Shown piece after piece: positions 4,596 to 61,983 of a stretch of 64,000 nt of DNA. How positions within the stretch are numbered: position 1 is the stretch's first letter; every line of letters begins with the position of its first letter. Location: IMG/VR virus record IMGVR_UViG_3300028603_000027, positions 1 through 64,000 of that record; one strand, 5' to 3'. A program made the translations under genes and the position numbers. The DNA comes from a virus. Lineage: Duplodnaviria; Heunggongvirae; Uroviricota; Caudoviricetes. The notes beneath the pieces were generated by a model that was not told the DNA's origin, did no database searches, and worked only from the letters and a program-made list of their open reading frames with translations.

Positions 4596-4637
4596 TTTAT
4601 AGCCCCACGCCTTTTGGTGTTGGGGCTTTTTCTTTTT
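4596..4637. terminator. Bidirectional rho-independent terminator
   Basis: agcccca-cgccttttggtgt-tggggct stem followed by tttttcttttt, between convergent genes. A second hairpin, gggcttaaaaagccc, lies at about 4565-4579. Confidence 0.6.
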
Positions 4638-5528: not shown

Positions 5529-5558
5529 GTTGACAAGAAGATCATCAAAGACTATGAT
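5529..5558 (+). promoter_or_regulatory. Sigma70-like promoter upstream of the Prs-like/NAMPT-like operon
   Basis: TTGACA, a 17-nt spacer, then TATGAT, 30 nt upstream of the 5589 start. A second consensus-like promoter (TTGACA-17-TATACT) lies at 5406-5434. Confidence 0.45.
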
Positions 5559-5588
5559 GGCCTCCTATCCAACTTCTAAGGAAAAGGA

Positions 5589-6380
5589 ATGAGTAACGTC
5601 TACGTTTACAAAACTGATTGTAAAGTCTTTAACTTCCCTGCGGGAGAAGTATCTGTTCGTCTGAATGAAGATACTCTTCGGGATGTCTCAACTATTGTTG
5701 CCCATATTCAAAATAGCGATAATATCATGCAAATGCTACTTTTGAATGACGCCCTTCGTCGTGCGGGTCAACAAAAAATCAACCTACTCATTCCTTATGT
5801 TCCTTATTCTAGACAAGACCGTGTATGTAATTCAGGTGAAGCCTTGAGCATCAAAGTGTTTTGTGATCTTGTAAATAGTTGCAATTTCAATTCTGTGTTC
5901 GTCATGGATTGTCACAGTGATGTCACGTTGGCTCTCCTTAATAATGTCCAACATGCTCATCAAAGTGTTGTATTTAGCCAGATTGAAAAAGATTGGGCTA
6001 ATACAATAATTATTTCCCCTGATGCAGGTGCTTTGAAAAAGGCAGAACAATTTGCTAAAGATCGGGGAGCCAAGGGTGTAGTGGTAGCTAATAAGAAACG
6101 TAATGTCTCTACAGGAGACATAGAATATGTAAGACTAACAGAGTCCGTAGCTAATGAAGATGTGTTTGTCGTAGATGATATTTGTGAGGGAGGAGGGACA
6201 TTTCTTCTCCTTGCAGAGCAACTACAAGAAGCCAAGAGTAAAGAAATTGCTGTAAGTCATGGAATTTTTTCTCGTGGAACGGAAGTTTTGACAAGTGTGT
6301 ACGATAGGGTGTACACTACAAACAGTTATCACCCTGAGTTGGAATCCAAAGACAACCTTGTAGTGTTTAAGATTATTTAA
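5589..6380 (+). CDS. PRPP-synthetase-family pyrophosphokinase (Prs-like; candidate ADPR-PP synthetase Adps of NARP1)
   Basis: PRPP-binding motif VFVVDDICEGGGTFLLL and a Prs-type N-terminal domain. At 263 aa it is shorter than housekeeping Prs and is translationally coupled to a NAMPT homologue. Confidence 0.7.
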   Translation: MSNVYVYKTDCKVFNFPAGEVSVRLNEDTLRDVSTIVAHIQNSDNIMQMLLLNDALRRAGQQKINLLIPYVPYSRQDRVCNSGEALSIKVFCDLVNSCNFNSVFVMDCHSDVTLALLNNVQHAHQSVVFSQIEKDWANTIIISPDAGALKKAEQFAKDRGAKGVVVANKKRNVSTGDIEYVRLTESVANEDVFVVDDICEGGGTFLLLAEQLQEAKSKEIAVSHGIFSRGTEVLTSVYDRVYTTNSYHPELESKDNLVVFKII

Positions 6381-6393
6381 AGGAGAAATAAAT

Positions 6394-8106
6394 ATGTTCA
6401 ACCCACTTCTGATGGTAGACGGCTACAAGCTTGGACACCACAACCAATATCCTGAAGGGATGACTTACCTGTTTAGCAATTTTACAGCGCGAAGCAATAA
6501 AAACTTCAAGAAGATCGCGGCAGCGGAATTCTTAGATGATTTTGTAGTGGTATTTGGCACACAAGCTACAGTGTCCTATCTGAATGAGGTGTGGGAGAAG
6601 GAATTCTTTTCTAAGAAGAAAGAAGCTGTTGTAGATGAGTTTGCAAACATCGTTCGTATGTTTTTGAACGACAATTCTTTTACGGTGGAACATGCAGAAG
6701 CCTTGCACGATCTAGGCTATCTTCCAATTAAATTTCACTCTTTGAAAGAAGGGACTCTGTGTAAAGTGAATGTACCGTTCTTTACTTTGGAAAACACTCA
6801 CCCTGATTTCGCTTGGCTTGTCAACTACATTGAAACACAATTGTCTGCGATGCTTTGGAAGCCGATTACTTCAGCAACTATCGCACGGCATTATAAAAAG
6901 ATTTTGAACCGATATTACGAAAAGACATGCGACAATAAAATGGGCATGGAATTTATGGTGCATGATTTTTCGATGCGTGGCTTGTCTAATGTTTTTGATG
7001 CACATTTTTCTGGAATGGGCCATTTGACTTCTTTCAGCGGGAGCGATAACATTCCTGCTTTGGTTGGGGTGCGTAAATACTATGGATGGGACATTGAAAA
7101 AGAATTTTTAGCGGGTGGTGTTCCCGCAACAGAGCATTCAGTTACTTCCAGCAACATTCAATCCTTTGTTGTGACAGAAGGATGTGATGAACTTGAGGCT
7201 GAAAAGAAAACAATTGAATATTTGATTTCAAAATATCCCTCTGGTTTTCTTTCGTATGTTTCAGATACGTATGATTATTACGGAGTAATTTCAGAGGTGT
7301 TGCCATCTTTAAAAGACAAATTGATGGCTCGGGAAGGGAAATTTGTTGTTCGCCCTGACAGCGGTAATCCTATAGATATCATTTGCGGTTTGGATATTCC
7401 TACTGTAGGCGATTCCACAGCCGCTGCTTGGAATTTGTACGATCAAGTGTCGTGTGATACGCCGCACGGTGAACGTGGAGAGGATATTGTCTCAGGTGTA
7501 TTTCTAATCAACGGAGAATATCGTAACATCAAAATTGTAATTGATTGGAATCGTTACGACAAACAGTATTATTACACAGACGGTTATGAAATTATTTCAG
7601 ATGAAGTGGTTTCTCTGACACCGGAGATGAAGGGGTCGCTGCGTTGTTTGTGGGATGCCTTTGGCGGTACACTGAATGAAAAGGGTTATATGGTATTGGA
7701 TTCCCATATTGGAATTATCTATGGAGACAGTATCACCCCTCAGAGAATGCACGAGATTCTTGAGCGTATGAAGCAAATGGGTTTTGCTGCATCTAATGTT
7801 GTGTTCGGGGCAGGAAGTTTCACATATCAATATACGACACGAGATACCTTTGGCATGGCAATGAAGGCCACATATTGCGAAGTAAATGATGTTCCTGTCA
7901 AGTTGTTTAAAGACCCCAAAACAGGAGACGGCAGTAAGAAGTCTGCTAAGGGGATGTTGGTTGTTCAAGACGGTGTATTGGTGGACGACATGGTGTATGG
8001 AGAGTATTTGGGTCAAAAGAACAACTTGGAAGAAATCAATTCTACTCCTAAAGACACATTCGACGTAATTCGTCAACGGATTAACGAGGGATTAAATGCA
8101 AGTTGA
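6394..8106 (+). CDS. Nicotinamide phosphoribosyltransferase family protein (NadV/NAMPT-like; candidate Namat of NARP1)
   Basis: N-terminus MFNPLLMVDGYKLGHHNQYPEGMTYLFSNFTARS is the typical NAMPT start; 570 aa; the start codon is 14 nt after the Prs-like gene. Confidence 0.8.
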   Translation: MFNPLLMVDGYKLGHHNQYPEGMTYLFSNFTARSNKNFKKIAAAEFLDDFVVVFGTQATVSYLNEVWEKEFFSKKKEAVVDEFANIVRMFLNDNSFTVEHAEALHDLGYLPIKFHSLKEGTLCKVNVPFFTLENTHPDFAWLVNYIETQLSAMLWKPITSATIARHYKKILNRYYEKTCDNKMGMEFMVHDFSMRGLSNVFDAHFSGMGHLTSFSGSDNIPALVGVRKYYGWDIEKEFLAGGVPATEHSVTSSNIQSFVVTEGCDELEAEKKTIEYLISKYPSGFLSYVSDTYDYYGVISEVLPSLKDKLMAREGKFVVRPDSGNPIDIICGLDIPTVGDSTAAAWNLYDQVSCDTPHGERGEDIVSGVFLINGEYRNIKIVIDWNRYDKQYYYTDGYEIISDEVVSLTPEMKGSLRCLWDAFGGTLNEKGYMVLDSHIGIIYGDSITPQRMHEILERMKQMGFAASNVVFGAGSFTYQYTTRDTFGMAMKATYCEVNDVPVKLFKDPKTGDGSKKSAKGMLVVQDGVLVDDMVYGEYLGQKNNLEEINSTPKDTFDVIRQRINEGLNAS

Positions 8107-8319
8107 TAATCGACAATATTTTTCTTGGCCTTATGGGAAAGAAAAAGAAGAGAAGGGAGGGTTCTTTGATTTGCCCGGAAGGGCTTATCCTTGCTATTCT
8201 CCTTACCACAATTTTCCTTCTCATCTCTATATCCCGCCAGGGAAGGGGTATAGGCATGTATGCCCCGACTGCGGAGCAGTGACAGAAGTACACAACAATG
8301 CAGTATTTTAGGAAGATAC

Positions 8320-8781
8320 ATGATTGATTTTAATAAGCCAGTTCAAACTATTAAAGGGAAGCCTGTTATTGTAATCACAACAAATGGGCCAGATCAAAAT
8401 TTTCCAATTGTGGGGCATATCAAAAACAGTGAAGTTATTCGATCTTGGAATCTGTATGGTAAGTTGCGTAAAGGGAGCGAATCGTTTAACATACAAAATG
8501 CTCCACCACTAGACGACTTTGTTGTAGATATAGTGGATGGAAATGGAAGATTGATGGCTAATGTCAAAGTTATGCCAGAAGAGAATAGAATTTCTGTTGA
8601 AACGAAAGAAGGAATTTCTTTGTACAAGAACGGGAAGAGTGTAAATGAAGTTGCAATTAAACGAGAATCCGCCCCAGCACCTGTCCCTGAGGGAGATTTA
8701 GCGTCAGCGTTTTTTAAGCAGTTTAGCTCCAACGGAAGAATATTAGATGATGGTTTGGAGGAAACGGATGGTCAAGATTAA
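8320..8781 (+). CDS. Hypothetical protein
   Basis: ORF starting MIDFNKPVQ with AGGAAG upstream; the longer 8260 start seems less likely. Confidence 0.4.
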   Translation: MIDFNKPVQTIKGKPVIVITTNGPDQNFPIVGHIKNSEVIRSWNLYGKLRKGSESFNIQNAPPLDDFVVDIVDGNGRLMANVKVMPEENRISVETKEGISLYKNGKSVNEVAIKRESAPAPVPEGDLASAFFKQFSSNGRILDDGLEETDGQD

Positions 8782-8819
8782 ACAAATGTTATTTCACGTT
8801 ATACCTCAAGAGGTGTGAC

Positions 8820-19357: not shown

Positions 19358-19804
19358 ATGGCTGAGAAAATTGATTGGGAAGATGCAGGGAAGTATTTTG
19401 AAGAGAATGTTTGTTTGTATGGTGCAACCTTGTTCGATGCATTCGCTCTTGGTGTTTCCTATGTAGAAGAAATGCAAAAGGTGAGGGAGACTTGGGGGCA
19501 GGAAAACTCTTCCCCTGAGGCAGAATATATCATACCAGGGGGTAAACATTATCTCTTTTCCTATAATGTTCCCGGCACTAACAACACAGTGAAGTCTTAT
19601 TTTTCTACTCTTGAGAATGCCCAAAAAGGTGTGGAACTTTCTGTTTTTCTTTGGGATGTAGTGGGCGCTTCTCTAAATCTCTCTGAAGACCTTATCGAAG
19701 AAAGAGAAGGTTCTCTCACAGTTGAGAGTATGTCTGTGATGTCAGATGGTACTGTAATCACCAATGAAAATGCATTGGAAGTGATGAAAGGATGTCTAGA
19801 TTAA
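19358..19804 (+). CDS. Hypothetical protein
   Basis: ORF only. Confidence 0.4.
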   Translation: MAEKIDWEDAGKYFEENVCLYGATLFDAFALGVSYVEEMQKVRETWGQENSSPEAEYIIPGGKHYLFSYNVPGTNNTVKSYFSTLENAQKGVELSVFLWDVVGASLNLSEDLIEEREGSLTVESMSVMSDGTVITNENALEVMKGCLD

Positions 19805-20307
19805 AGGGAAGGGATTTATTTTACGCTTGGTATCATAAAGAGACAGGGGAACGCCTAAGTTGGGTGTTCCCCACTCGTCGTAAAGCTCAAGAGTGGATGG
19901 ATAGTACATATTTCCGTTACAAGAAATATCCACGAATAGACGATTATTATCGAACGTTGCGGTCTGTGTCTGTCAGGAATTTCTCTAAGAAATATTGGTA
20001 CAGAGACAAAGAGGTAACAGAAAACTGTGAGCTTCGACCGGGGAATCTTGATGTTTTTGAATTAGATTTTAGGGGTAGAGACAAAAATCTAAAACAATGG
20101 AAAAAGGATAATTGGGAAAAATGGAATGACACTCCTCGCCCTGTAAGAGAATATCCTAGTGCAATCCAACCAAGCGGTAAAAGATGGACAGTTGAATTTG
20201 AATGGAAAGGTGGGGTATTTAATTTGGGATACTTTAGGAAGAAGGAAAATGCAGAGCAAGCTTTAGATAAGAAGTTGCGGGAAATTGGAGCGTGGGCAGA
20301 TGAGTAA
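19792..20307 (+). CDS. Hypothetical protein
   Basis: ORF only. Confidence 0.4.
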   Translation: MSRLKGRDLFYAWYHKETGERLSWVFPTRRKAQEWMDSTYFRYKKYPRIDDYYRTLRSVSVRNFSKKYWYRDKEVTENCELRPGNLDVFELDFRGRDKNLKQWKKDNWEKWNDTPRPVREYPSAIQPSGKRWTVEFEWKGGVFNLGYFRKKENAEQALDKKLREIGAWADE

Positions 20308-26945: not shown

Positions 26946-27281
26946 ATGCAACCTACTGAAGAACAAGTTGTTAACAAGTGGATTTCACTAAAGAACAGTG
27001 CAGCTAGTCGAAAATTGAAATTTGATTTGACCGTTCTTTCGGTTAGAAATCTTCTACGAGCAGAAAAATGTTTTTATACAGGCGTTAGCTTTAATTCTAA
27101 GATGAGGGGTTTAGGTAAAACAATAGATCGGATAGACCCTAATAAGGGGTATGTCAGAGGGAATGTGGTAGCGTGTACAGATGGGTACAATCAAGCTAAA
27201 GCCCAATGGGAGAAGCTAGATAAGAAAGGTGTAAGAGCCATGATTAGACAGTTGAAAATTATTGAGGAGAGAATGAAATAA
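26946..27281 (+). CDS. Hypothetical protein
   Basis: ORF preceded by the promoter TTGACA-17-TATAGT at about 26876-26905. Confidence 0.4.
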   Translation: MQPTEEQVVNKWISLKNSAASRKLKFDLTVLSVRNLLRAEKCFYTGVSFNSKMRGLGKTIDRIDPNKGYVRGNVVACTDGYNQAKAQWEKLDKKGVRAMIRQLKIIEERMK

Positions 27282-27595
27282 TGTACAAGCTTTTTATAGA
27301 TGATGAGAGATTTCCAATCGACCCTCATTGGTTTGTAGCCAGGAATTCTTTTGAAGCAATCAAAGCCATAGACCTTTACGGCATCCCTCAAGAAATAGCT
27401 TTTGACCATGATTTAGGTGGACAGGATACGGCTATCATCTTTATAAATTGGTTGGAAGACAAGTTGGTAGAAGGGGTGTATAATCTTCCTCAAGGCTTCA
27501 TTTGGAGTGTACACAGTCAGAATCCAATTGGGGCTAAAAACATACAGGCACGAATGGAAGACCTAGCTGATTATTTTGGAGAAAAGCATGTCTAG
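27281..27595 (+). CDS. Hypothetical protein
   Basis: ORF only. Confidence 0.4.
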   Translation: MYKLFIDDERFPIDPHWFVARNSFEAIKAIDLYGIPQEIAFDHDLGGQDTAIIFINWLEDKLVEGVYNLPQGFIWSVHSQNPIGAKNIQARMEDLADYFGEKHV

Positions 27596-27932
27596 CTACT
27601 ACCCTGATGGATGGCAGTTTATTAAAATTGAACACAGCGGTAATGTTTTAATTAAGGTGTTTGGAAGTTGGATGGGCAGTTTCACAGAAGGGGAGCATTG
27701 GCGTCTGAACAGCGGTTGTATGAAAATTGAGACAGAAGAGGATACGCTACTTGCTCACGGATACTCAGGTAGTGTATACTTCTTAGATAAAATTACAGAA
27801 GGAAAGCTAGGAAGCTGGAATGGGAGTCAATTGCAGTCAATTATTGATAGTTATCAAGGTGTGCATAAGATTGAACGAATTTCAGCAGAAGAGGCAATTC
27901 TTTTAATTTCAGGAGAGGAAAATGGCAGCTAA
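27576..27932 (+). CDS. Hypothetical protein
   Basis: ORF only. Confidence 0.4.
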   Translation: MEKSMSSYYPDGWQFIKIEHSGNVLIKVFGSWMGSFTEGEHWRLNSGCMKIETEEDTLLAHGYSGSVYFLDKITEGKLGSWNGSQLQSIIDSYQGVHKIERISAEEAILLISGEENGS

Positions 27933-28323
27933 CCGTATGCTGGCACAAATGCGTGGCATTTCGGCTGAAAACGTTGAAGCAATCGACTTAATTCACGAAG
28001 AATTGGAGAAAATGATTGAGAACCACGTTTCTCTAGGCACAGAAGAATCTCTAGTGCTAGAGAAAATTGAGCGGTTGGAGTATCGTCTTCAAGAGTTGTG
28101 GAAGTTTCCTCGTGACCCCGAGAAACATACGTGGAAAACTAGGTATTTATTTAAAAATAATTGGGCTAACACCACATGGAGATGTGAGGAAACAGGAGAC
28201 GTTGTAACAATTCCGTTTGAAGTGGAGGAGACGGATTTCTTTTTAATTGGAAACGGATACATTGATGTGGGAAGGTGGGGAAGCTATTCTCGCCGCGCTG
28301 GTAACTTAACTAAAATCGCTTAG
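27922..28323 (+). CDS. Hypothetical protein
   Basis: ORF only. Confidence 0.4.
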   Translation: MAANRMLAQMRGISAENVEAIDLIHEELEKMIENHVSLGTEESLVLEKIERLEYRLQELWKFPRDPEKHTWKTRYLFKNNWANTTWRCEETGDVVTIPFEVEETDFFLIGNGYIDVGRWGSYSRRAGNLTKIA

Positions 28324-28334
28324 GAGAAACATAA

Positions 28335-28562
28335 ATGCATTATTACAAAGATTCTTACCTGTTTTCTAGCCTTCCCGAAAAATACCATGTAGAGCTTCTT
28401 GAAGTGGTGGACATTCTAGGGGAATACTCTGAAGACAACCCCAACGGAGTGGCATTAGGGCAAGATTTACTTGGTGCTTTCTTTTGGGAGTTAGCTCCAC
28501 AAGGTATTTTATATTGGGCAGATGTGTTTGAAGAAACTTCAGAGGGACAGGAGAATGACTAA
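28335..28562 (+). CDS. Hypothetical acidic protein
   Basis: ORF only. Confidence 0.4.
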   Translation: MHYYKDSYLFSSLPEKYHVELLEVVDILGEYSEDNPNGVALGQDLLGAFFWELAPQGILYWADVFEETSEGQEND

Positions 28563-28860
28563 GAAGTATTATCTCATTGAAGGAGATTTTTTAGAAACAT
28601 TAAAAAATTACTTTCATACCCGAGGGATGGAACACACGGAACAACTCTTGAGCGACATTCTGATGGACGTAGATGTTTCTGTTTTGAAAGAAGAAGCAGA
28701 GATGTTTCGTTATATCGAAAACATTTCCTTTCCCTATGAAGAAGAGGGTGAGTTTTATTGGGTGGTAAACGATTTACCCGACATGGCAGGCAAGACAATG
28801 GATTTTCGTAGTTATTTAAAATTTATTATGGAAAAACGTAATACAGAAACAATCCATTAA
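28522..28860 (+). CDS. Hypothetical protein
   Basis: ORF only. Confidence 0.4.
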   Translation: MCLKKLQRDRRMTKKYYLIEGDFLETLKNYFHTRGMEHTEQLLSDILMDVDVSVLKEEAEMFRYIENISFPYEEEGEFYWVVNDLPDMAGKTMDFRSYLKFIMEKRNTETIH

Positions 28861-28996
28861 CAAACCATTGTTTTAAAAAGATTGTGGAAAAATAGATACA
28901 CTGTCATATAAGTTGTTGCCAACAAGAAAAATGATGGTATAATTCTAGACATTGGTGGTGAGATTTATGTTTATGAAATTTTTAAGGAGAAAGAAA

Positions 28997-29383
28997 ATGT
29001 CCAATATCGAACTCGTGAAGGATGACGTAGCGTATGTGAATGGCAAGGCTTACAAGCTGGTTCCTATTCCTACAGAGAAGATTTTTATTGGCGAAGTAGA
29101 CGGTAAAAAGTATTACCTTGGCCCTGAGGCTGATCGTCAAATGAATTGGGAGCAGGCTAAGAAGTGGGTCGCGTCGGCTGGCGGTCAACTGATGCCACGA
29201 GAAGTAGGCGTTCTTGCATTCAAAAAGGCTGAAATCCGCAAACAATTTCGTACCGATGATTGGTACTGGCTTGAAGATGAGTACAGTTCGTCGCATGGTT
29301 GGATTCAGTACTTCTACAATGGTAGTCAGGGCTACAGCACCAAGCCTGATGCGTTCTATGTTCGGGCCGTCTTCGTTGAATAA
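28997..29383 (+). CDS. Remote DGR target 2: small C-type-lectin/DUF1566-like protein with C-terminal VR2
   Basis: MSNIELVKDD... start after AAGGAGAAAG. The motif WEQAKKWVASAGGQLMPREVGVLAF is DUF1566-like. The C-terminus SSSHGWIQYFYNGSQGYSTKPDAFYVRAVFVE is encoded by VR2. Confidence 0.75.
   Translation: MSNIELVKDDVAYVNGKAYKLVPIPTEKIFIGEVDGKKYYLGPEADRQMNWEQAKKWVASAGGQLMPREVGVLAFKKAEIRKQFRTDDWYWLEDEYSSSHGWIQYFYNGSQGYSTKPDAFYVRAVFVE
29286..29369 (+). repeat. DGR variable repeat VR2
   Basis: 84 nt aligned to TR 903-986; all mismatches are at TR adenines. Confidence 0.85.
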
Positions 29384-29401
29384 TTTTCTGAAGGAAAATC
29401 C

Positions 29402-29518
29402 ATGAGTGTAGTGTTTACGCTTACAGGCGCAACAATTTTTGTGGCCCTAGTGATTTATGGGGTTAAACAATTGGTTTCTAACGTCAAGTTTAAAGGAGAT
29501 GACGATAATGCAAATTAA
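29402..29518 (+). CDS. Small single-TM peptide upstream of SPFH gene
   Basis: MSVVFTLTGATIFVALVIYGVKQLVSNVKFKGDDDNAN, about 38 aa. Short and speculative. Confidence 0.25.
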   Translation: MSVVFTLTGATIFVALVIYGVKQLVSNVKFKGDDDNAN

Positions 29519-30368
29519 AAATATCATTGCAAGTGTTGTTCTGGCAATTGTAGCCATCATTGGTCTTACTATTGGTTTGGGCAGTTGGTATACCGTGGAT
29601 GAAGGGGAACGTGCTGTTACGCTTTCATACGGTAAGGTGTCAGGCTCGGCAGAGCCAGGGTTTCACTTCAAGATGCCTTTCGTGGAAACTATCGAACGTG
29701 TAAGTGTACGAGCACATACGGTAAGGTTCGATACAGTAGAAGCATACAGCCGTGACCAACAACCTGCCACGCTTGCAATCAGTGTTACATATCGCATTCC
29801 AGCAGATAGCGTAGAATCCCTGTACACCATGTACGGTAATCGTCAGAATATGCAAGGCCGTGTAATTGACCGAAAGCTTCCAGATGAAGTGAAGAATGTG
29901 TTTGGACAATACACAGCTATCCGGGCCATCCAAGAACGTGCTTCTCTTGTTATTGGTATTAATGAGGCTCTACGAAAGAGTGTAGAGGGACAGCCCGTTA
30001 TTATTGATAGTGTTCAAGTAGAAGAGATTGCTTTTTCAGATGCTTATGAACAATCTGTTGAACAGCGTATGAAGGCAGAGGTGGAAGTGTTTACACGAGA
30101 ACAAAACCTGAAAACAGAGAAAATCAACGCAGACATTGCTGTTACGCAGGCTAAGGGTCGTGCCGATAGTGCGCTTGCTGAGGCAGAAGCTCAAGCAAAA
30201 GCTATTAAGCTGAAGGGTGAAGCTGAAGCTCAAGCAATTCGTGAACGAGGTGATGCTCTTCGCCAGAATAGCCAGCTTGTTGATCTGATTGCAGCAGAAC
30301 GTTGGGATGGTTCACTCCCTGCCACTATGGTTCCTAACGGTGCTCTTCCTTTTGTGAATGTTCGTTAA
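29508..30368 (+). CDS. SPFH/Band-7 (HflK/flotillin-like) membrane protein
   Basis: N-terminal TM (IIASVVLAIVAIIGLTIGL), an SPFH core starting YTVDEGERAVTLSYGKV, and a C-terminal Ala/Glu coiled-coil AEAEAQAKAIKLKGEAEAQAIRERG. Confidence 0.65.
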   Translation: MQIKNIIASVVLAIVAIIGLTIGLGSWYTVDEGERAVTLSYGKVSGSAEPGFHFKMPFVETIERVSVRAHTVRFDTVEAYSRDQQPATLAISVTYRIPADSVESLYTMYGNRQNMQGRVIDRKLPDEVKNVFGQYTAIRAIQERASLVIGINEALRKSVEGQPVIIDSVQVEEIAFSDAYEQSVEQRMKAEVEVFTREQNLKTEKINADIAVTQAKGRADSALAEAEAQAKAIKLKGEAEAQAIRERGDALRQNSQLVDLIAAERWDGSLPATMVPNGALPFVNVR

Positions 30369-30371
30369 GTG

Positions 30372-30404
30372 GTAATCGGAAGCCCTTCGGGGCTTCTTTT
30401 TCGA
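30372..30404 (+). terminator. Rho-independent terminator
   Basis: gaagcccttcggggcttc followed by ttttt. Confidence 0.55.
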
Positions 30405-30593
30405 TAAAGGAAAAACAATGACAACATTCATATTGGTGTTATACATATTCGGATATAAATCCGCAGCAGCGGAGATGCAAGAATTTAATTCTAAAGCTGC
30501 GTGTGAACATGCAATTATGGAGATAAAGAAAGCCACTGGAAAGATAGCTCCTGTACTGGTTTGTGTTCCTAAGTCCTTGGAGGAAATATAGAA

Positions 30594-30893
30594 ATGACAT
30601 ACGATGAGATTTTGGATTATGAATGGGAGTTTGAAGATGCAGATGCCAACTCCATTCGGGAATACTTGCAAGAGCTATTGTTAAAGCTATGGCAAGAAGG
30701 GGAAGGCTTTTCAGGAAAGCGTCCCTTTGGTAACAGCGGGTGGGAATATGATTTACTCTATCCCCTCGTAGCTATGGGAGAAATTCCAGGGAAGTTAGAT
30801 GACGATGGGTGTCTAGAGAGCGTTAATGGAGAGGCAGGCTATGAGATGGTAGAAAGTCTTATTTACTACGTATTTTCTAGCACAGAAAAATAA
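30594..30893 (+). CDS. Hypothetical acidic protein
   Basis: ORF only. Confidence 0.4.
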   Translation: MTYDEILDYEWEFEDADANSIREYLQELLLKLWQEGEGFSGKRPFGNSGWEYDLLYPLVAMGEIPGKLDDDGCLESVNGEAGYEMVESLIYYVFSSTEK

Positions 30894-30914
30894 CGATTTA
30901 ATCAGGGACGGCTT

Positions 30915-31829
30915 ATGCAAAGTGTTGACATCAACGGGAAGAAATATATTCTCGCAGAACAGGAAGGGATGATTAACATCACCTCTCAAAGCAAGAAAGA
31001 AATAGAAAGGCTTGAAGCTTCTTTTTGTACGGATATTGTGCCGTGCCTCGCAGAAGCCAATGCTGTATTGGCAGGCGGCGCTCTCACAAGTCTTTTTACT
31101 AACAAAGAAGTAAATGATTACGACATTTATTTTAAAAACGTAGAAGGCTTTCAAAGTATTATTAATGATATTTATGACACTCCTGAAAGCGGAAGCGTCT
31201 TGAGCAGTTATGATGTCATAGTAAATTTTGCCACTGATCGGAGTATCCTCTGCAAAGAGAAGTGGAGCGAAAATGCGATTCAATTCATCGTTTATAAAAT
31301 GTTCCCCGACATTCAAGACATTTTTAATGCTTTTGATTTTACTGTTAATATGTGTGCTTACGATTTTGCAACACAACAGATGTGGGCGCATCCAGATTTC
31401 TTGAAACACTGTTCACAGCGTTACCTCTCCTTTAATGGGAGAACAGATTATCCTGTTGTGTCAGCACTTCGGGTAATGAAATATACAGAACGAGGCTATA
31501 CAATATCTAAAGCAGAAATGCTTAGAATTCTCTTCACTATTGCAGCTAAGGAATATAAAGATTGGCAGAGTGTGAAAGAAGAAGTAGGTAGTATGTACGG
31601 AATCCCTGTTGACAAGCTATTTGACGAAACAAAAGAATTTAATCTGGAAGAAGTAGTGCTGCAACTGAACAATTGCGTAGCGTTAGACAAACCTAGGGTT
31701 ATGGCAGAAGCTTACGACACTAAAGATTTGGCGACGAAGTTCCCGCATCTTTTAGATCAAAAGTGGGCAGAAAATAATAACTTTTGGTGGGCGAAAGAGG
31801 CGTATGGGCAAGAACAAGTTCACCTCTAA
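30915..31829 (+). CDS. Pol-beta-superfamily nucleotidyltransferase domain protein
   Basis: The hG[GS]x9-13Dh[DE]h pattern is matched by AGGALTSLFTNKEVNDYDIYF. Confidence 0.4.
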   Translation: MQSVDINGKKYILAEQEGMINITSQSKKEIERLEASFCTDIVPCLAEANAVLAGGALTSLFTNKEVNDYDIYFKNVEGFQSIINDIYDTPESGSVLSSYDVIVNFATDRSILCKEKWSENAIQFIVYKMFPDIQDIFNAFDFTVNMCAYDFATQQMWAHPDFLKHCSQRYLSFNGRTDYPVVSALRVMKYTERGYTISKAEMLRILFTIAAKEYKDWQSVKEEVGSMYGIPVDKLFDETKEFNLEEVVLQLNNCVALDKPRVMAEAYDTKDLATKFPHLLDQKWAENNNFWWAKEAYGQEQVHL

Positions 31830-32217
31830 CCTGAAGATACAATACCTTCAAAATAAAGGACGCAGAGCATTGTTTTCTTTGTTAGAGGGGTTCACATTCT
31901 ATTCAGACGATATGCTAGCGGGACAGCGGGTTTGGGTGGATGTTCCCGCAGGGTTTGTATCTGATGGCGCTTCGACACCTCGTTGGACATGGATATTGTT
32001 CCCGCCTTGGGCAGATTATGGTCAAGCGTGTGTTTTACATGATTTCTTACTAGAAAAGAAAACATACACAGACGGCATAAATACTTTTAAAGCAACAGCC
32101 AAGCAAACAGATATTGTTTTTAAAGAAGCTTTAAATGTGTTGAAAGTTGCCCCTTGGAAAGTATTTTTGATGTATAATGGTGTACGTGTTTGGAACATCT
32201 TTAAAGGAAGGTATTGA
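31804..32217 (+). CDS. DUF1353-like protein
   Basis: VDVPAGFVSDGASTPRWTWILFPPWADYGQACVLHDFL resembles the DUF1353 core. Confidence 0.35.
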   Translation: MGKNKFTSNLKIQYLQNKGRRALFSLLEGFTFYSDDMLAGQRVWVDVPAGFVSDGASTPRWTWILFPPWADYGQACVLHDFLLEKKTYTDGINTFKATAKQTDIVFKEALNVLKVAPWKVFLMYNGVRVWNIFKGRY

Positions 32218-33941: not shown

Positions 33942-34220
33942 ATGCCAAGGGACGTAAGACTAATTAAAGAGTTCATAAAAAGCCAAGGGAACAAGTTTTT
34001 TACTGTCGAGTTTGAGAAGAAAGACGGAACGCTACGGAAGATAAACGGGCATATAAGAGCAGTACCAGGGCATGACGGAATCAACCCTACAGCACACATA
34101 GACAAATATTTAACGGTAGTATTGGCAGAGAAGGACAAAAACGGTAATGAGCAATGGAGAAATGTTAATATAGCTACCATAAAATCATTAGCTATTGCTG
34201 GTAAAGTGTTTAAGTTTTGA
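33942..34220 (+). CDS. Hypothetical protein
   Basis: ORF followed by a terminator hairpin gccgccac...gtggcggc-ttttt at 34240-34275. Confidence 0.4.
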   Translation: MPRDVRLIKEFIKSQGNKFFTVEFEKKDGTLRKINGHIRAVPGHDGINPTAHIDKYLTVVLAEKDKNGNEQWRNVNIATIKSLAIAGKVFKF

Positions 34221-34496
34221 ACCACAAACGAGAAACCGCACAACATAGCCGCCACACCTAACAAGCGTGGCGGTTTTTCTTTGTCTGTTTGGTTTGTGTC
34301 TGTAATGTTTGATTGGTTGCTATATGTTCCACGTGAAACAGCAGCCCATAGGGGAAAGCCCTTACGCCTTTTGCATTAGGGAATAATTCGGAACGAAATA
34401 ATACGTTTTCCCTATATGCACCGTATTTGCAAATCTTCATAATGGGAACCGTAGACACCTACAACACACCACGAAACAACACAAGGAGATTTCACC

Positions 34497-35015
34497 ATGA
34501 ACAACACTATTACCCGCCAGCAAGCCCTAGAACGTTTGATTTCTCTTGAGTCAGAGGCCGCCCAACTCAGGAAAGTGTTAGATGAAAAATCCTACCCCGT
34601 TTCCCTCTTACCTTACCCCGATAAAACAGACAACCAACAAGCATACTACATAAAGGATGGCGAAAACGGACAATTTGAAGTAGGGGAGATGAGCAGCAAG
34701 AAAACAACAGAAGACCATGCTAACGTGTTTTCTAGTAGAGAAGATGCAGAAGCATACAAGGACGCTATAAATACTTTCTTGATGCTTCGCAAGTGTGAAG
34801 GCAGCACGACAACGAAAGAACGGGTAGCACAATGGTTAATCGAATATGACGTAGAAGCAGAAAAGGTAATTACTACAAGGCGTTATGTACTGAGTAGCAA
34901 GATTTCCCGCCTTAGCCCTGCATTCGATACGGAAGCAAACGCGCAAAAAGCAATTAAAACGATAGGCAAAGACAAGTTAACAGCCTTGTTCAAAACTTCA
35001 CACCACGTAGAATAA
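34497..35015 (+). CDS. Hypothetical protein
   Basis: ORF followed by the terminator gccctgttg...caacagggc-tttt at about 35025-35058. Confidence 0.4.
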   Translation: MNNTITRQQALERLISLESEAAQLRKVLDEKSYPVSLLPYPDKTDNQQAYYIKDGENGQFEVGEMSSKKTTEDHANVFSSREDAEAYKDAINTFLMLRKCEGSTTTKERVAQWLIEYDVEAEKVITTRRYVLSSKISRLSPAFDTEANAQKAIKTIGKDKLTALFKTSHHVE

Positions 35016-35062
35016 AGAAAGACAAGGACACGCCCTGTTGTATAAAAGCAACAGGGCTTTTA

Positions 35063-35263
35063 TTGGACGCTTGCAAAATGAAATTATTTGATGCTAAAAT
35101 ACTAATAAATAACGATGTATTTCATTTTTATATTGAGCCTGGAAAGGATTGTTTTGTAGCTTGTTTGGACGTTAACGGTAAACCTTACGCTGTTTTAGGT
35201 TGCATCGAACAGAAAGACGCTATACAATTACTAACAGAATGGCTTAATGCTTGTCTTAAATGA
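35063..35263 (+). CDS. Hypothetical protein
   Basis: ORF only. Confidence 0.35.
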   Translation: MDACKMKLFDAKILINNDVFHFYIEPGKDCFVACLDVNGKPYAVLGCIEQKDAIQLLTEWLNACLK

Positions 35264-35344
35264 GGGAAACAATGGGCAAGAAAATAGAGTTAATCACTTG
35301 TGCAGCTTTAATGTTTTGTGTTATGATGTTAGTAACATACACAG

Positions 35345-35554
35345 TTGAAAGGATGTAAGGACATGGAAAGCCGGTACAATTGCGTTATTCGTTTTGCTGA
35401 TGGCAGCTACTACACAGGTAGAGCAGGAGAACACGCAACAGGAAATAAAAGCGAAGCCCTGCCATACTCTGAGGTAGAAGCAAAAGCAAAAATTGCAAGA
35501 CTCCAACATACCCCACTATTCAGTAAAGCAAGCATCGAAAAAGTTACAAATTAA
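35345..35554 (+). CDS. Hypothetical protein
   Basis: ORF only. Confidence 0.35.
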   Translation: MKGCKDMESRYNCVIRFADGSYYTGRAGEHATGNKSEALPYSEVEAKAKIARLQHTPLFSKASIEKVTN

Positions 35555-35735
35555 GGGGTTGACAAGTTAAATTTAACACTCTACAATAGCTTTACATTGA
35601 ACGAAACACAAAAGGGTAGGACATGCGGAAGATCACACAAGAAGCAATAAACGCCTTTATGAGCGGGAATGCTTATAATAACGGGAATACAAGGGTTGTT
35701 GGATTGATAAACACACTTTCAAAAAAGGAAACATC

Positions 35736-36131
35736 ATGCAAGCAAAAACAATCATTATTGACGGCGTAGAATACAGCCTTACCCCTGTTAACCAAAACGG
35801 ATTTATCGGAGAGGTGAACGGCAAGCGTTATTATTTGGGGCCGGAAGCAGACGAACAGATGACACAGGAAGAAGCCCGCGATTGGTGCGCTTCCCTGGGT
35901 GATAATTTCGAGCTTCCCTCACGTGTTGTAATGCTTTTGTGTTATAATAATAAGGAATTGCGTAAACAGTTTCAGACTGATGATTATTACTGGACAAATG
36001 ACGAATACGAGAATGATTCGTCGCGTGGTTGGTATCAGACCTTCACCAGTGGTCATCAGGGCTACCACAACAAGACTACTGCGAACTATGTTCGGGCCGT
36101 GCGTGTCGAGGAGGCGAAGCCCCAAAATTAA
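35736..36131 (+). CDS. Remote DGR target 3: small C-type-lectin/DUF1566-like protein with C-terminal VR3 (paralogue of target 2)
   Basis: Paralogous to 28997-29383 (GEVNGKRYYLGPEADEQM..., ELRKQFQTDDYYW). C-terminus SSRGWYQTFTSGHQGYHNKTTANYVRAV is encoded by VR3. Promoter TTGACA-17-TACAAT at about 35566-35595. Confidence 0.75.
   Translation: MQAKTIIIDGVEYSLTPVNQNGFIGEVNGKRYYLGPEADEQMTQEEARDWCASLGDNFELPSRVVMLLCYNNKELRKQFQTDDYYWTNDEYENDSSRGWYQTFTSGHQGYHNKTTANYVRAVRVEEAKPQN
36016..36099 (+). repeat. DGR variable repeat VR3
   Basis: 84 nt aligned to TR 903-986; all mismatches are at TR adenines. Confidence 0.85.
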
Positions 36132-36234
36132 AATGTTTTGCTTTTGAACGTTTTAATACATAGCATCTTGCAAATTAAAAAGTAGGGTGCTATAATTAAA
36201 ACATTGAAACGAAGTTGTTTTATCTTTAGGAGAT

Positions 36235-36585
36235 TTGAACATGCAACAGGCTATTTTGGAATCGGTTATCGGTAGTTTCGCAAAGAAAAACAAAATCAGT
36301 AAGGCAAAGCTTGCGGAGTTTGCAGCAGAAGTACAACAGATCAAACCGGAGCGTAAACCCGCTATTACGGCAATTTCTAAGGGTATCCGCGAAACTATCA
36401 TGAGTAAGGCGCAGGGTTTCACATCGGCAGAGATTGCAGCAGAAACCGGAGCCACTACAGTACAGGTTAATAATAATTTGTTCGCTTTGCAGCGTCAAAA
36501 TATTGTAATACCGACAGGTGAAAAGCAAGCAACAGGCGGCAGGGGCAAGCCTGCTACAGTTTGGGCAGTAGCGAAGAAACATTAA
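36235..36585 (+). CDS. Small winged-HTH DNA-binding protein
   Basis: FTSAEIAAETGATTVQVNNNLFALQRQNIVIPTGEKQATGGRGKPATVW; paralogue of 38216-38464. Promoter TTGCAA-17-TATAAT upstream. Confidence 0.45.
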   Translation: MNMQQAILESVIGSFAKKNKISKAKLAEFAAEVQQIKPERKPAITAISKGIRETIMSKAQGFTSAEIAAETGATTVQVNNNLFALQRQNIVIPTGEKQATGGRGKPATVWAVAKKH

Positions 36586-36844
36586 AAACGTGGGGTTATA
36601 CCTAGCACACTCTAACGGGAGTGTGCTATAATAAACCTACTGAAACAACATTAGCCAACATTTTCGGAGCATGACGCTATGAAATGGGTAATCATTTACT
36701 TTCTAACCCTCATAATCTTCCCTTTAGGTTTGCCGCTTGTTATTATTGCCCACATTCTAAGCAATGCAGAAAAGAACAGAAGCAAGAAACGAGAGAAAGA
36801 AATTGAAAACGCGGTAACACGTGCTTTAAGCAAAAAGGCGTAAC

Positions 36845-37033
36845 ATGAAACACTGGATATTAACACCAGATAGGGCGCAAAGCATCATTACATCACTAGA
36901 TTTAGGAAAGATGACGCTAAAGGCCGCTAAACTTTATTATTCAGCCTATGGGGTGGAAATAAAGGGAAGGACAAAGCAACAATTTATTAAAAACCTTACT
37001 GAAAAAGTGTACGGAGAAGGAAACGCGGTATGA
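36845..37033 (+). CDS. Hypothetical protein
   Basis: ORF only. Confidence 0.35.
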   Translation: MKHWILTPDRAQSIITSLDLGKMTLKAAKLYYSAYGVEIKGRTKQQFIKNLTEKVYGEGNAV

Positions 37034-37361
37034 ATTGGGCAGACGACGAACACGGTATTTTTGTTCCACGTGAAACGCTAAAGCGTAAAGGAGGGAAAAA
37101 GCCAGCAGAGACAAAACGGGAGAAAATAAAGCCCTGGAAACGCCAACAGAAGGAGAAACGGAGTAGCCGTTATGTGTCCCTATCTTCTGCGGAATAGTTG
37201 AATGTCTAAAATAGTATGGTTTTTTGTAGTATTCTTTGTTGTAATGTTAGTGTGTCCTGTTTTGTTGCCTGCCTTGTTCCTAGACAAGCATTAAAACATT
37301 AGACAAATACAACAAAGTGCAGTAGAATTAAATTGTTCTCTACCCTTACTAAGGATATGTA

Positions 37362-37694
37362 ATGCCAATTGTACAAACCTTGACAGAATCCGCTTTTATT
37401 GATGCTTTCCAAAAGGTACGGCCTGATAATTTCTCATCGCGTGGTTTATCTTTGTTGTTTGAACACTACGAAAGTTATTCAGACGACACAGGCGAAAACG
37501 TAGAATTTGACCCGATAGCTATTTGTTGTGAATGGTCAGAATATAACAACATCGAAGAAGTGCGGGAAGAGTACGACTTGACAGAGGAAGATTATCCCGA
37601 ATTTTCCGATATGCTAGACCATTTGGAAGGAGAAACAACAGTATTGTACGATGACGACGAAGACCCGGAAATAATCATTATTCAAAACTTTTAA
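37362..37694 (+). CDS. Hypothetical highly acidic protein
   Basis: Asp/Glu-rich. Promoter TTAGACA-17-TAGAAT upstream, terminator at about 37715-37748. Confidence 0.4.
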   Translation: MPIVQTLTESAFIDAFQKVRPDNFSSRGLSLLFEHYESYSDDTGENVEFDPIAICCEWSEYNNIEEVREEYDLTEEDYPEFSDMLDHLEGETTVLYDDDEDPEIIIIQNF

Positions 37695-37785
37695 TTACAA
37701 TCTTTTACACATATAAGCCCGTTAACAGTTGACGGGCTTTTTCTTTATTGTTATACTGTCTTCACAATGTTTAGGAGATAGAAAA

Positions 37786-37977
37786 ATGAATATCGTTTAT
37801 GCTCTGGTGTTTGTAGCTTGTTTTAACGGAGAGTGTGAAGAATACGTTTTAGACACTTTGCCAAGTATGGCCGACTGCGGAGCATCGCTAATGCTTCATG
37901 CTCCAGAAATATCTAATTATGATGAAACGGGCATGTACGCTCTTTCGTGTGAAAAAACTATTGTTGAAAAGGTGTAA
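37786..37977 (+). CDS. Small Cys-rich secreted/membrane protein
   Basis: MNIVYALVFVACFNGECEEY... hydrophobic N-terminus. Confidence 0.35.
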   Translation: MNIVYALVFVACFNGECEEYVLDTLPSMADCGASLMLHAPEISNYDETGMYALSCEKTIVEKV

Positions 37978-37979
37978 AA

Positions 37980-38183
37980 ATGTTATTCTTTGTTGACGAT
38001 ATAGCCGGATGCTACTTAAAAGGGTATAGGCTAGAAGACGATCACGTTATGATTGAACAATACAGTATGAAAGGAGGCAATGATTGCATTACGTATTTTC
38101 TTTCAACAGAAGTTTTCAAAAAGACATATAAAACAAGTGTTGACAATCTACCCCTAAAGCCTTATAATTACCCCATAAATTGA
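37980..38183 (+). CDS. Hypothetical protein
   Basis: ORF only. Confidence 0.35.
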   Translation: MLFFVDDIAGCYLKGYRLEDDHVMIEQYSMKGGNDCITYFLSTEVFKKTYKTSVDNLPLKPYNYPIN

Positions 38184-41390: not shown

Positions 41391-41974
41391 TGGGCTATAT
41401 TTTAAAGGAGTGTATGAAAGAACAAAGAAACATATCCATACACTTGGATAGAGAGGAAGGGTTTTCGATTAGGGAGATTGCCCGTAGGAATAATTGTTCC
41501 ACTACAACAGTACAGAAGGTATTGAAACAAACTCCTCCTGAAGATATTTCTATGTCCGAGGCTGTTGATTCTATTTATACTCTTGCTTCGAGAAAAGAAG
41601 GGGTGTTGTTTTCTGAAGAGTATTCTTGTCTAAAAGAAATCTTCGGGGATGAGATAGAGAAGGGTGTTGTAGGGCAGGTAAGACGGAAAGTGAAGGCAAA
41701 AGCTTCCAAGAAAGGAACATCAGTTTTGTTTATCCCTAGCTGGTTAGGCAGAGAAGATGTTATGGAAAAGAGAGATAGTATTATGTCTCTTGCAAATGAA
41801 CTTCATGAGCGAATGTATGAATACATAGAACAAGCAGTGGATGAAACAGGCGCTTCTTGGAATGAATGTAGAGATATTTTGTTGTCACTAGCTATTCCTT
41901 CTTATAGTAATATCCCTGTTTCCGTTCAGTGTGAAAGGATAGATGAAATTATCCACAAACTACAGATAAAATAA
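41390..41974 (+). CDS. HTH transcriptional regulator
   Basis: N-terminal HTH FSIREIARRNNCSTTTVQKVLKQ. Last + strand gene before the strand switch, followed by the bidirectional terminator tagcccctaaaggggcta-tttgtttt. Confidence 0.5.
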   Translation: MGYILKECMKEQRNISIHLDREEGFSIREIARRNNCSTTTVQKVLKQTPPEDISMSEAVDSIYTLASRKEGVLFSEEYSCLKEIFGDEIEKGVVGQVRRKVKAKASKKGTSVLFIPSWLGREDVMEKRDSIMSLANELHERMYEYIEQAVDETGASWNECRDILLSLAIPSYSNIPVSVQCERIDEIIHKLQIK

Positions 41975-41998
41975 TAGCCCCTAAAGGGGCTATTTGTT

Positions 41999-52923: not shown

Positions 52924-54204
52924 CTAAGACACTGTTTCCATGTCTACAACATCTGCAAGCCCTTCCATTACCCGGAAGGGGTAACTTTTGCATTTGAAAA
53001 ACTTGGGGTTTGTTTTATTAGTGTCTACTCTGACAATAATACCTTCTCCGATCATTCCTGAAAACTGATGGTCTTCTCCAAGATGTTCAGGACGCTCCGT
53101 GAGCTTTTCCACCAACTCACGCAAGGCTTCTTCGTCTCCGTTGTAGATCATCTGAGGGTGAACTTCAAATGTGGATTCAATTCCTCTATTCTCACACCAT
53201 TGTTCCATTTCCTTTTGAGACAAATCAATGTTTTTACCATCAACAGTTTGCCGGGTTATCCGGTAAATGTGCCACTTGTATTCACCTTCTGTGCAACCGT
53301 AGTGAAACACATTGGTATTACCATATTTCTCTGTGTACCGCTTGTCTTTCAAAGCTTTTATGTCTCCATTAGGCATAATAGCCTTACCGTTGACAAAACC
53401 AACAATTTCTCCATACACGGTCATTCCATCTTCTAACAGAGGATAGATTTCTCTACCTACCTCGAAACGGAAAGATTCACTTCCATGAAAACCTTCTTTG
53501 TATTCTTGTTGTAGCGTGACATTTCTACTTCCAACCACCATTTCATAATCCCCTGTAAGAGGAAAGATAGGCGCAATCTTGTTAATCAGTTTCTTCCAAC
53601 GAGGAAGTTCTACTGTTCTTCGCATTTTGGCTACTCGCATGGAAGTGCCATGCCGCTTGTTATGAAAAGAAAGAAGAGCACCCACAGGAATGTTGGCCGC
53701 AAAGTGTCGGAAGTTATCGGTGTCAGAATGTTTTTCAAACAAAGGAAAAGCGTTAGCCTTTACTGTCTTGGTTCTTTGGTTTCCTATTGCCTTTCGAGCC
53801 TGTTCAGTGATGTATTTTTGACAAATTTTAACACCATTGAGTTCATCAAATTCTGTTCCAAGTTGAGTAGGCACTTCTCCGCAGAATGCCAAGCTCTCCA
53901 GAGAAGAGAAATACCCGCTACTACGAACTTTCAAAAAGGGTTGTGCTCGTACTTTACGATTATCATCAAAGAAACCTTTCTTATCAGAATCAGCATTCTT
54001 TTCAGAATTACGGAAAAGATTATTTTCTCGGCAATATTGTTCTGAAAGTTGAACATCTACAGGAAAGAATACACCTATAAACCCTACAGGCAAATCCTTT
54101 GAGACAACGACAGGTTCACCAAGTACGTAGGCAATTTGAATTCGATCTGCACCGGGGATAGTCTCTACTTTATCAATCTTAGCGATAATTGCTTTGTGTG
54201 CCAT
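52924..54204 (-). CDS. Putative RNA ligase (Rnl2-like nucleotidyltransferase)
   Basis: FHNKRHGTSMRV fits the KxHGT[NS] motif I of Rnl2-type ligases. Lies between the Pnk-like kinase and a metallophosphoesterase. Confidence 0.4.
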   Translation of the reverse strand: MAHKAIIAKIDKVETIPGADRIQIAYVLGEPVVVSKDLPVGFIGVFFPVDVQLSEQYCRENNLFRNSEKNADSDKKGFFDDNRKVRAQPFLKVRSSGYFSSLESLAFCGEVPTQLGTEFDELNGVKICQKYITEQARKAIGNQRTKTVKANAFPLFEKHSDTDNFRHFAANIPVGALLSFHNKRHGTSMRVAKMRRTVELPRWKKLINKIAPIFPLTGDYEMVVGSRNVTLQQEYKEGFHGSESFRFEVGREIYPLLEDGMTVYGEIVGFVNGKAIMPNGDIKALKDKRYTEKYGNTNVFHYGCTEGEYKWHIYRITRQTVDGKNIDLSQKEMEQWCENRGIESTFEVHPQMIYNGDEEALRELVEKLTERPEHLGEDHQFSGMIGEGIIVRVDTNKTNPKFFKCKSYPFRVMEGLADVVDMETVS

Positions 54205-61786: not shown

Positions 61787-61862
61787 GTTGGTATAGATTA
61801 ACGGATAGATCACAACCCTTTCAAGGTTGCGGCGTAGGGTTCAACTCCCACTACCAACTCCA
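61787..61862 (+). tRNA. tRNA-Glu (anticodon TTC) candidate with weak T-stem
   Basis: Acceptor gttggta/taccaac, D-stem gatt/gatc, anticodon stem caacc/ggttg with loop ctttcaa, T-loop ttcaact, encoded CCA. The T-stem has only 3 clean base pairs. Confidence 0.35.
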
Positions 61863-61909
61863 AACATTGCTTATGTTAGGCATAAGCTGAAGTCAACTTA
61901 GGCTTCTTT

Positions 61910-61983
61910 CTTTCTGTAGCGTAATGGTAGCGTACTTCGTTTGGGGCGAAGTGGTCGAGGTTCGAGTCCTCGTGGAAAGACCA
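61910..61983 (+). tRNA. tRNA-Pro (anticodon TGG)
   Basis: Anticodon stem cttcg/cgaag with loop tttgggg, T-arm cgagg-ttcgagt-cctcg, acceptor ctttctg/tggaaag (two G-U pairs), encoded CCA. Confidence 0.55.

Follow-up and report, generated by a model that had tools for sequence, protein, structure and literature searches.

Diversity-generating retroelements (DGRs) carried by phages are generally read as receptor-switching devices that mutate the tips of tail fibers. In the prototype DGR, that of Bordetella phage BPP-1 (Mtd-Avd-TR-bRT), the one adjacent target is Mtd, a 381-aa protein with an FGE-sulfatase-type lectin fold that is made separately and docks on the tail fibers. Here we analyzed a 64,000-nt stretch of a Caudoviricetes genome (positions 1 to 64,000 of IMG/VR record IMGVR_UViG_3300028603_000027; hereafter the window) whose DGR resembles that of BPP-1 in the order of target, small accessory open reading frame (ORF), template repeat (TR) and reverse transcriptase (RT), the cassette in both cases closing the structural module at its tail end, and also in adenine-specific mutagenesis, AAY-rich TR codons, a C-type-lectin-fold gene whose 3' end carries a variable repeat (VR), and a G+C-rich repeat end. 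Unlike BPP-1, it has three targets, all of the DUF1566/Lcl_C type, two of which lie 28 and 35 kb away in non-structural arrays and encode proteins of 128–131 aa; whereas BPP-1 has Avd and a downstream hairpin, neither was confirmed here. The subject of this study is the most distant of these, target gene 3 (35736–36131, + strand), which encodes a stand-alone DUF1566/Lcl_C (C-type-lectin-fold) protein of 131 aa.

A single TR and RT serving several paralogous targets in trans is also found in Treponema denticola (TvpA), where the targets are lipoproteins with the FGE-sulfatase-type lectin fold spread over the chromosome; that system is cellular, whereas all targets described here lie within one phage genome. 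Target 3 belongs to the same DUF1566/Lcl_C family as two Legionella pneumophila proteins, the DGR target LdtA and the C-terminal domain of Lcl (PDB 8q4e), a secreted collagen-like adhesin whose family is named “collagen-like adhesin Lcl” in NCBIfam. According to Wu et al. (2018; PMC5758913), LdtA carries an export signal and is exposed on the cell surface as a lipoprotein; target 3, by comparison, has neither a signal sequence nor an anchor. The same survey reported remote targets for the T. denticola DGR, non-adjacent targets within 50 kb for many phage-associated DGRs, and short proteins without any other domain for about half of the DUF1566-class targets (its “category d,” with CLec2 VRs). 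Target 3 fits both of the latter descriptions, so a remote short DUF1566 target is already a known kind; the survey does not treat the genome module of short targets, their promoters, or their diversification between otherwise identical genomes. The largest DGR survey (Roux et al., 2021; PMC8144416) annotated viral DGR targets mostly as tail proteins, by an approach that is blind to targets not adjacent to the RT, and remote targets are therefore likely under-counted. Our literature search returned no paper on phage DGR targets in early regions or on intracellular roles for them.

A repeat search of the window found a ∼110-nt element in four copies, at 93, 878, 29261, and 35991. Base-by-base comparison identified the copy at 878 as the holder of the TR (core 903–986, + strand; 31 of its 84 nt are adenines, and 12 of its in-frame codons are AAY) and the other three as VRs. 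VR1 (118–201) has 20 mismatches to the TR and VR2 (29286–29369) has 15, in both cases all at TR adenines. VR3 (36016–36099, + strand), which lies 35.1 kb from the TR, has 12 mismatches over the 84 nt, and these too fall exclusively on TR adenines (P = 1.2e-6 for 12 randomly placed mismatches). An initial annotation, made from the sequence alone, had proposed a remote third target ∼35 kb from the TR whose VR, at exactly these coordinates, differs from the TR only at adenines and has a substitution pattern of its own; all of this was borne out, the VR3 pattern being distinct from those of both VR1 (20/20 at adenines) and VR2 (15/15). Non-A substitutions and frameshifts, the two kinds of change that would have spoken against a functional VR3, were looked for and were absent: there are no indels relative to the TR, and the frame is kept to the stop codon at 36129–36131.

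VR3 encodes residues 94–122 of 131, near the 3' end of the intact ORF. All 31 TR adenines occupy codon positions 1 or 2, and each of the 12 changes in VR3 affects position 1 or 2 of an AAY (Asn) codon of the TR. Across the five VR copies that we compared with the TR there was no non-A change, and 27 of the 31 adenines vary in at least one copy; the four that never vary lie in the Q101, Q108, and K113 codons, and the last of these, the single AAG codon of the TR, is constant in all copies. The TR and all three VRs share an A-free, G+C-rich 3' end of 11 nt (TGTTCGGGCCG; 36089–36099, + strand, in VR3), past which the homology breaks off sharply, with T in the VRs and C in the TR; by analogy with BPP-1, this repeat end is a candidate element similar to the initiation of mutagenic homing (IMH) site.

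Comparison with independent assemblies indicated that VR3 is changing in nature. Logan contig SRR6484323_2269 (87,207 bp), which derives from another sequencing run, differs from window positions 25736–46131 at 18 of 20,396 bp. All 18 mismatches are within VR3 and all are at TR-adenine sites, with none in the other 20,312 bp, and VR2 is identical. An ENA contig (ERZ27247346:k141_2051786; 87,318 bp) differs from window positions 1–10721 at 17 sites, all in VR1 and at TR adenines, and has an identical TR. The ENA contig carries the same VR3 as the window but a different VR1, so the two repeats change independently. Database proteins P0009 and P0010 are variants of target 2, differing mainly in the VR. 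Because the 18 VR3-only differences separate otherwise identical assemblies, we conclude that the VR3 target is active in nature, and, as far as sequence comparison can tell, homing to VR3 is almost certainly ongoing.

The initial annotation also described target 3 as a small DUF1566-like protein, a description that the fold analysis upheld. Target 3 matched Pfam Lcl_C (PF07603) at 28.6 bits (E = 1.9e-6), below the gathering score of 34.9 and over the C-terminal part of the model only; many members of its family carry a precomputed PF07603 assignment. A profile search placed at least 357 proteins in this family, of which the best 120 are almost all 104–172 aa long and cover 69–100% of the query. 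The AlphaFold2 model, built with the family alignment as input, has a pLDDT of 90.2 and consists of an N-terminal β-hairpin (of lower confidence, pLDDT 64–72), two helices, and a C-terminal sheet, with VR3 forming the last three β-strands and their loops. In the PDB, Foldseek ranked the Legionella Lcl C-terminal domain 8q4e first (E = 1e-5, TM 0.63), making it the best solved match, and many C-type lectin-like domains came next; the family profile found 8q4e among PDB sequences at E = 5e-10. In BFVD the top match was a 115-aa DUF1566 protein of an uncultured phage, and in PHROG the sole match was phrog_4245, of unknown function.

Within the alignment of 121 family proteins, the most variable columns correspond to the TR AAY codons (about 3.0–3.7 bits, with one at 2.4), and they alternate with near-invariant scaffold residues (W99, Q101, F103, G106, Q108, K113, Y118, and the motif VRAV). 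Such a pattern is what one would predict for a family whose members mostly undergo DGR diversification, or did so until recently. The non-variable scaffold of target 3, judged by its codon substitutions, is under purifying selection (dN/dS of 0.11 outside the VR, relative to a 75%-identical orthologue on contig L005). With twelve AAY codons in the TR, one face of the protein could take at least 15^12 (about 1.3e14) forms. We found no signal peptide, lipobox, or hydrophobic segment in target 3 (maximum Kyte-Doolittle 15-residue mean of 0.70). Lacking any hydrophobic segment, the protein has no signal peptide or membrane anchor, and with no export signal it could leave the cell only at lysis; the earlier suggestion that it might be secreted is thus not upheld. 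Its proposed paralogy to target 2, the 128-aa product of the gene at 28997–29383 (+ strand, including VR2; start backed by the gene call on contig L001), was confirmed at 53% identity over 119 aa (E = 5e-35), but the two segments said to be shared are similar and not identical (GEVNGKRYYLGPEAD in target 3 vs. GEVDGKKYYLGPEAD in target 2, and ELRKQFQTDD vs. EIRKQFRTDD). Target 2 is represented in NCBI by a hypothetical protein from a Gammaproteobacteria metagenome-assembled genome.

Target gene 3 is located outside the tail module, in an array of small genes at 27–42 kb that also contains target gene 2, and the view that it lies among small promoter-driven, non-structural genes was supported by the distribution of promoter-like sites. 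Between 27000 and 42500, sigma-70-type sites scoring at least 10/12 number 14 on the coding strand and one on the other strand, against 3.15 ± 1.78 (maximum 8) in 200 shuffles of the region. Sites scoring at least 11/12 number five on the + strand, where 0.27 are expected from shuffles, and two of the five sit directly upstream of targets 2 and 3. The density of sites is 0.9 per kb in the small-gene array vs. 0.1 per kb in the structural module. The putative target 3 promoter (35559–35587, + strand; TTGACA-17-TACAAT, 11/12) and that of target 2 (28916–28943, + strand; TTGCCA-16-TATAAT with an extended TG, 11/12) each occupy the intergenic gap directly upstream of their gene. A ribosome-binding site (RBS), AAGGA, at 35725–35729 (+ strand) precedes the ATG of target gene 3 by 6 nt, and the next promoter follows at 36168–36196, so that the gene looks like its own transcription unit. 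The 142-nt 5' leader has no significant structure (z = −0.36). A 48-aa ORF at 35623–35769, which lies in this leader and overlaps the start of target gene 3, was treated as non-coding: it is probably not a gene since its RBS is poorly spaced, it is uncalled in related contigs, and no homologue occurs upstream of the orthologues. The promoters support transcription of target 3 by the host RNA polymerase, i.e., in an early or middle class, although the “early” timing is circumstantial, being read from promoter type.

We assign a probability of about 0.6 to the reading that the single DGR of this phage currently acts on the gene at 35736–36131 as a functional target not adjacent to it, and that the product of this gene is a soluble cytoplasmic binder that is not part of the virion. 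By analogy with BPP-1, the RT (997–2079) would copy TR RNA (903–986) into cDNA, misincorporating opposite adenines, and the mutated cDNA would replace VR3 in replicating phage DNA 35 kb away, with targeting probably mediated by the common G+C-rich 3' repeat end; the same process would operate at VR1, in a tail-module protein, and at VR2. The product, a single DUF1566/Lcl_C-type domain with a short N-terminal β-hairpin expressed from its own sigma-70-type promoter unit, would bind its ligand as a soluble, diversified protein within the infected cell's cytoplasm, made from the phase when host RNA polymerase reads phage promoters. Target 3 is probably not a built-in tail-fiber protein. An action within the infected cell, as opposed to one on the virion, is plausible, and we give it about an even chance.

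Several observations weigh against this reading. Gene position and promoter consensus are circumstantial and establish neither the timing of expression nor a non-virion location. A stand-alone lectin domain could dock on a fiber through its conserved N-terminal hairpin, the part modeled with lower confidence. Downstream of the VRs, DNA hairpins do not outscore those of shuffled sequences (z = −0.5 to −2.0), so one known homing enhancer is not evident. The candidate accessory protein (Avd), a 114-aa ORF at 377–721 (+ strand), was nominated by its size and its position between target 1 and the TR, and it has no match in Pfam, NCBIfam, or PHROG. Finally, on contig L012 (below), the small target lies between neck and tail-fiber genes, albeit on the opposite strand.

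The genomic settings of the relatives of target 3 bear directly on this question. Orthologues with 57–76% identity occur in comparable small-gene arrays on contigs L005 and L009, and the neighboring genes are not conserved between relatives. Other family members were found beside RecT, beside thymidylate synthase, in a long array with helicase and UDG genes, and in a T4-like nucleotide-metabolism region, with no RT within 10 kb of any of these four. All contexts inspected are non-structural except that on L012, where the gene forms an opposite-strand insert between structural modules. L012 is a T4-like contig of 95.7 kb on which a 118-aa family member (10001–10357) lies ∼9 kb from a second DGR (19414–20206), in inverted orientation. 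The adjacent target of that DGR is a 696-aa Lcl_C tail protein, its RT is 45% identical to the RT in the window, and 18 of 21 core mismatches in the small VR fall at TR adenines. A large tail target accompanied by a small stand-alone paralogue is therefore found again in another kind of phage. On the same contig, a ∼100-nt element is repeated at 9201–9300 and 9718–9817, preceding two small genes upstream of the small target. A 118-aa family member at 10001–10357 of L017, a contig from the same sample as L012, was considered as a remote target of the L012 DGR and rejected, with only 17 of 29 mismatches at A; it sits in a T4-like nucleotide-metabolism region and is probably either the gene of a related phage that has a separate TR or an older copy that has since diverged.

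A megablast search of window positions 34000–38000 against GenBank phages returned no match, neither IMG/VR nor JGI metagenome contigs contained an exact match to a 39-nt flank pattern, and a search of IMG/VR for related loci with a 12-sequence alignment found no relatives. A tblastn search of GenBank phages with target 3 gave only two weak matches, both to the same 47.9-kb sequence deposited twice, as Shewanella phage vB_Sb_QDWS (OK094664.1) and as “Hujiaoplasma phage zrk29-1” (OP650936.1). In QDWS, a cultured temperate phage of 48 kb for which we examined two regions (OK094664.1 1–6417 and 30000–47902; L015 and L018, respectively), two small stand-alone Lcl_C targets of 118 and 156 aa accompany a bAvd, a TR (2975–3065), and an RT, with 15 of 16 and 11 of 11 VR/TR differences at A. 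The cassette lies in an early operon, between RecT/exonuclease and DNA methylase/host-nuclease-inhibitor genes. Its RT is annotated only as “retron-type RNA-directed DNA polymerase,” and the DGR has apparently gone unrecognized so far. QDWS thus resembles the phage studied here in its small stand-alone Lcl_C targets, its essentially A-only VR/TR differences, and their early, non-structural setting. It differs in that the targets adjoin bAvd-TR-RT and are not remote, and that TR matches, looked for near the cassette only, revealed no large tail target there; the match to target 3 stands at about 37% and spans half the length.

The main rival to an intracellular role is that targets 2 and 3 are virion-associated accessory adhesins, small lectin-fold proteins made separately and docking on tail fibers, baseplate, or capsid in the manner of BPP-1 Mtd. 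They would provide the virion with extra diversified receptor specificities, and chance in genome organization would explain why their genes lie far from the DGR. We regard this as rather unlikely, though it is the strongest of the competing explanations. The same DGR diversifies a genuine tail-module protein with the same VR scaffold, the small L012 target lies between neck and tail-fiber genes, small proteins are the only targets near the QDWS cassette, and the survey record of viral DGR targets is, as noted above, mostly one of tail proteins (PMC8144416). In addition, the N-terminal hairpin carries a conserved motif, IDGxxY, outside the lectin domain, which could, on the model, be a docking element. 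Set against this, every context examined but that of L012 is an early, recombination, or nucleotide-metabolism region, each small target gene is preceded by a sigma-70 promoter of its own, a type of site with few occurrences in the structural module, and PHROG gives target 3 no structural annotation.

A specific sub-case of a cytoplasmic role is that target 3 is an antibody-like binder for counter-defense or host takeover, whose diversified face would track variable host proteins such as defense components. The absence of an export signal accords with this idea, as does the company that the small targets keep. The array includes, near target 2, a cREC_REC-like protein (27281–27595), a Band_7/SPFH protein (29457–30368), and a Gad2-like nucleotidyltransferase (30915–31829), along with a DUF1353 protein (31804–32217) that PHROG names “tail assembly chaperone,” and the gene content of this cluster (27281–32217) suggests a host-interaction or counter-defense region. 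A Lar restriction-alleviation gene lies near the target 3 orthologue in L005, the QDWS cassette adjoins the DNA methylase and host-nuclease-inhibitor genes, and, for bacteria, it has been proposed that lectin-fold proteins diversified by DGRs serve as cytoplasmic sensors (PMC10907252). Nevertheless, these are arguments from guilt by association only, the neighboring genes are not those found around relatives, and the literature search gave no precedent for such a phage DGR target; we therefore consider this role doubtful as a specific assignment.

The remaining explanations carry very little weight. The idea that the small paralogues are silent donor cassettes for the tail target was rejected given their low similarity outside the VR and the fact that each has its own promoter, RBS, and selected scaffold. 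An inactive relic, in which VR3 is an old duplicated target no longer recognized by the DGR, might seem to account for the smaller share of substituted adenines in VR3 (12 of 31) relative to VR1 (20) or VR2 (15) and for the lack of a significant hairpin downstream of VR3, but it is contradicted by the VR3-only differences at TR adenines with none elsewhere in 20.4 kb, by five VR copies without a non-A change, and by the purifying selection on the scaffold; natural VR variation between assemblies rules out a decayed relic. The same variation makes it very unlikely that reads from VR1, VR2, or the TR were mis-joined into an apparent third repeat: repeats do disturb assembly, as contig SRR8449813_53493, which stops inside the TR, demonstrates, but VR3 has unique flanks within a complete ORF that is under purifying selection and has 57–76% identical orthologues in other phages, it recurs unchanged in the independent ENA assembly, and its substitutions cannot be pieced together from VR1, VR2, and the TR.

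The cassette from which target 3 would be diversified in trans lies at the window edge. Target gene 1, cut by that edge, is represented by its 3' end (1–221, + strand, including VR1); the full gene, seen in the ENA contig (L002, 8331–9845), encodes a 504-aa Lcl_C protein and closes a myovirus baseplate module with Dit-like, sheath-initiator, Baseplate_J, and wedge genes. Target 1, the accessory ORF, the TR, and the RT together form a canonical tail-target cassette. The RT (997–2079, + strand; Pfam RVT_1, E = 3e-21) begins 10 nt downstream of the TR core and contains the motifs IGNLTSQ and YVDD, the former fitting the pattern [I/L/V]GxxxSQ, which is the DGR-RT signature. NCBIfam has no dedicated DGR-RT model, and the matches there were to other RT classes, all under cut-off. 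By BLASTP, the 114-aa accessory ORF weakly matched the L012 bAvd (E = 0.01). Directly after the RT and ahead of the lysis genes, at 2105–2749, lies a gene for a 214-aa DUF4376 protein.

The phage as a whole is a myovirus of ∼87 kb whose gene content we presume to be FelixO1-like, a lytic-type large myovirus with two small targets and one tail target. Its PolA is 57% identical to that of Pseudomonas phage ventosus and about 56% to those of Escherichia and Klebsiella phages of ∼137–150 kb. After the DGR cassette come the lysis genes, with a phage lysozyme at 3005–3589, and small ORFs, followed by a + strand block of replication and nucleotide-metabolism genes (NAMPT, primase-helicase, PolA, ribonucleotide reductase, and thymidylate synthase). 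Adjoining genes at 5589–8106 encode PRPP-synthetase-like (263 aa) and NAMPT-like (570 aa) proteins, a pair that presumably resembles phage NAD-salvage genes or the NAD-reconstitution counter-defense pathway. Beyond the small-gene array, a minus-strand block encodes ligases, an HNH protein, PhoH, and a ClpP-like protease, and at the junction of the + and minus-strand blocks a hairpin with a perfect 9-bp stem (41973–41994) scores as a terminator on both strands. tRNA clusters occupy 14968–15215 and 61787–61983 (Arg-TCT, Gly-TCC, Leu-CAA; Glu-TTC, Pro-TGG), the first preceded by a gene for a 461-aa protein matching phrog_850 (“RNA-binding protein”), and an RNA ligase is encoded at 52924–54204; tRNA repair or supply is a possible role for the tRNAs and ligase. 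An Rfam search found nothing besides the five tRNAs.

The mechanism at work here is that of a textbook DGR, whereas the consistent non-structural context of this family of small proteins is not described in the literature that we searched. Besides its tail target, a single DGR alters two very small lectin-fold proteins that stand alone, encoded tens of kb away in the part of the genome that holds replication and putative host-takeover and counter-defense functions, and these proteins are changing in nature. More speculatively, the small, signal-less, single-domain DUF1566 lectin-fold proteins that many unrelated phages encode in their early or accessory regions may be a widespread class of DGR-diversified intracellular binders, antibody-like and directed against variable host factors such as defense proteins, a generalization that we put forward only tentatively; if it is true, targets served in trans over tens of kb are being missed by surveys that accept a VR only when it adjoins the RT. 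QDWS, being in culture and carrying an analogous cassette, could serve as an experimental model. If the proposed intracellular action of target 3 is correct, phages would be using DGRs in arms races within the cell as well, mirroring the DGR-diversified sensors proposed for bacterial defense systems.

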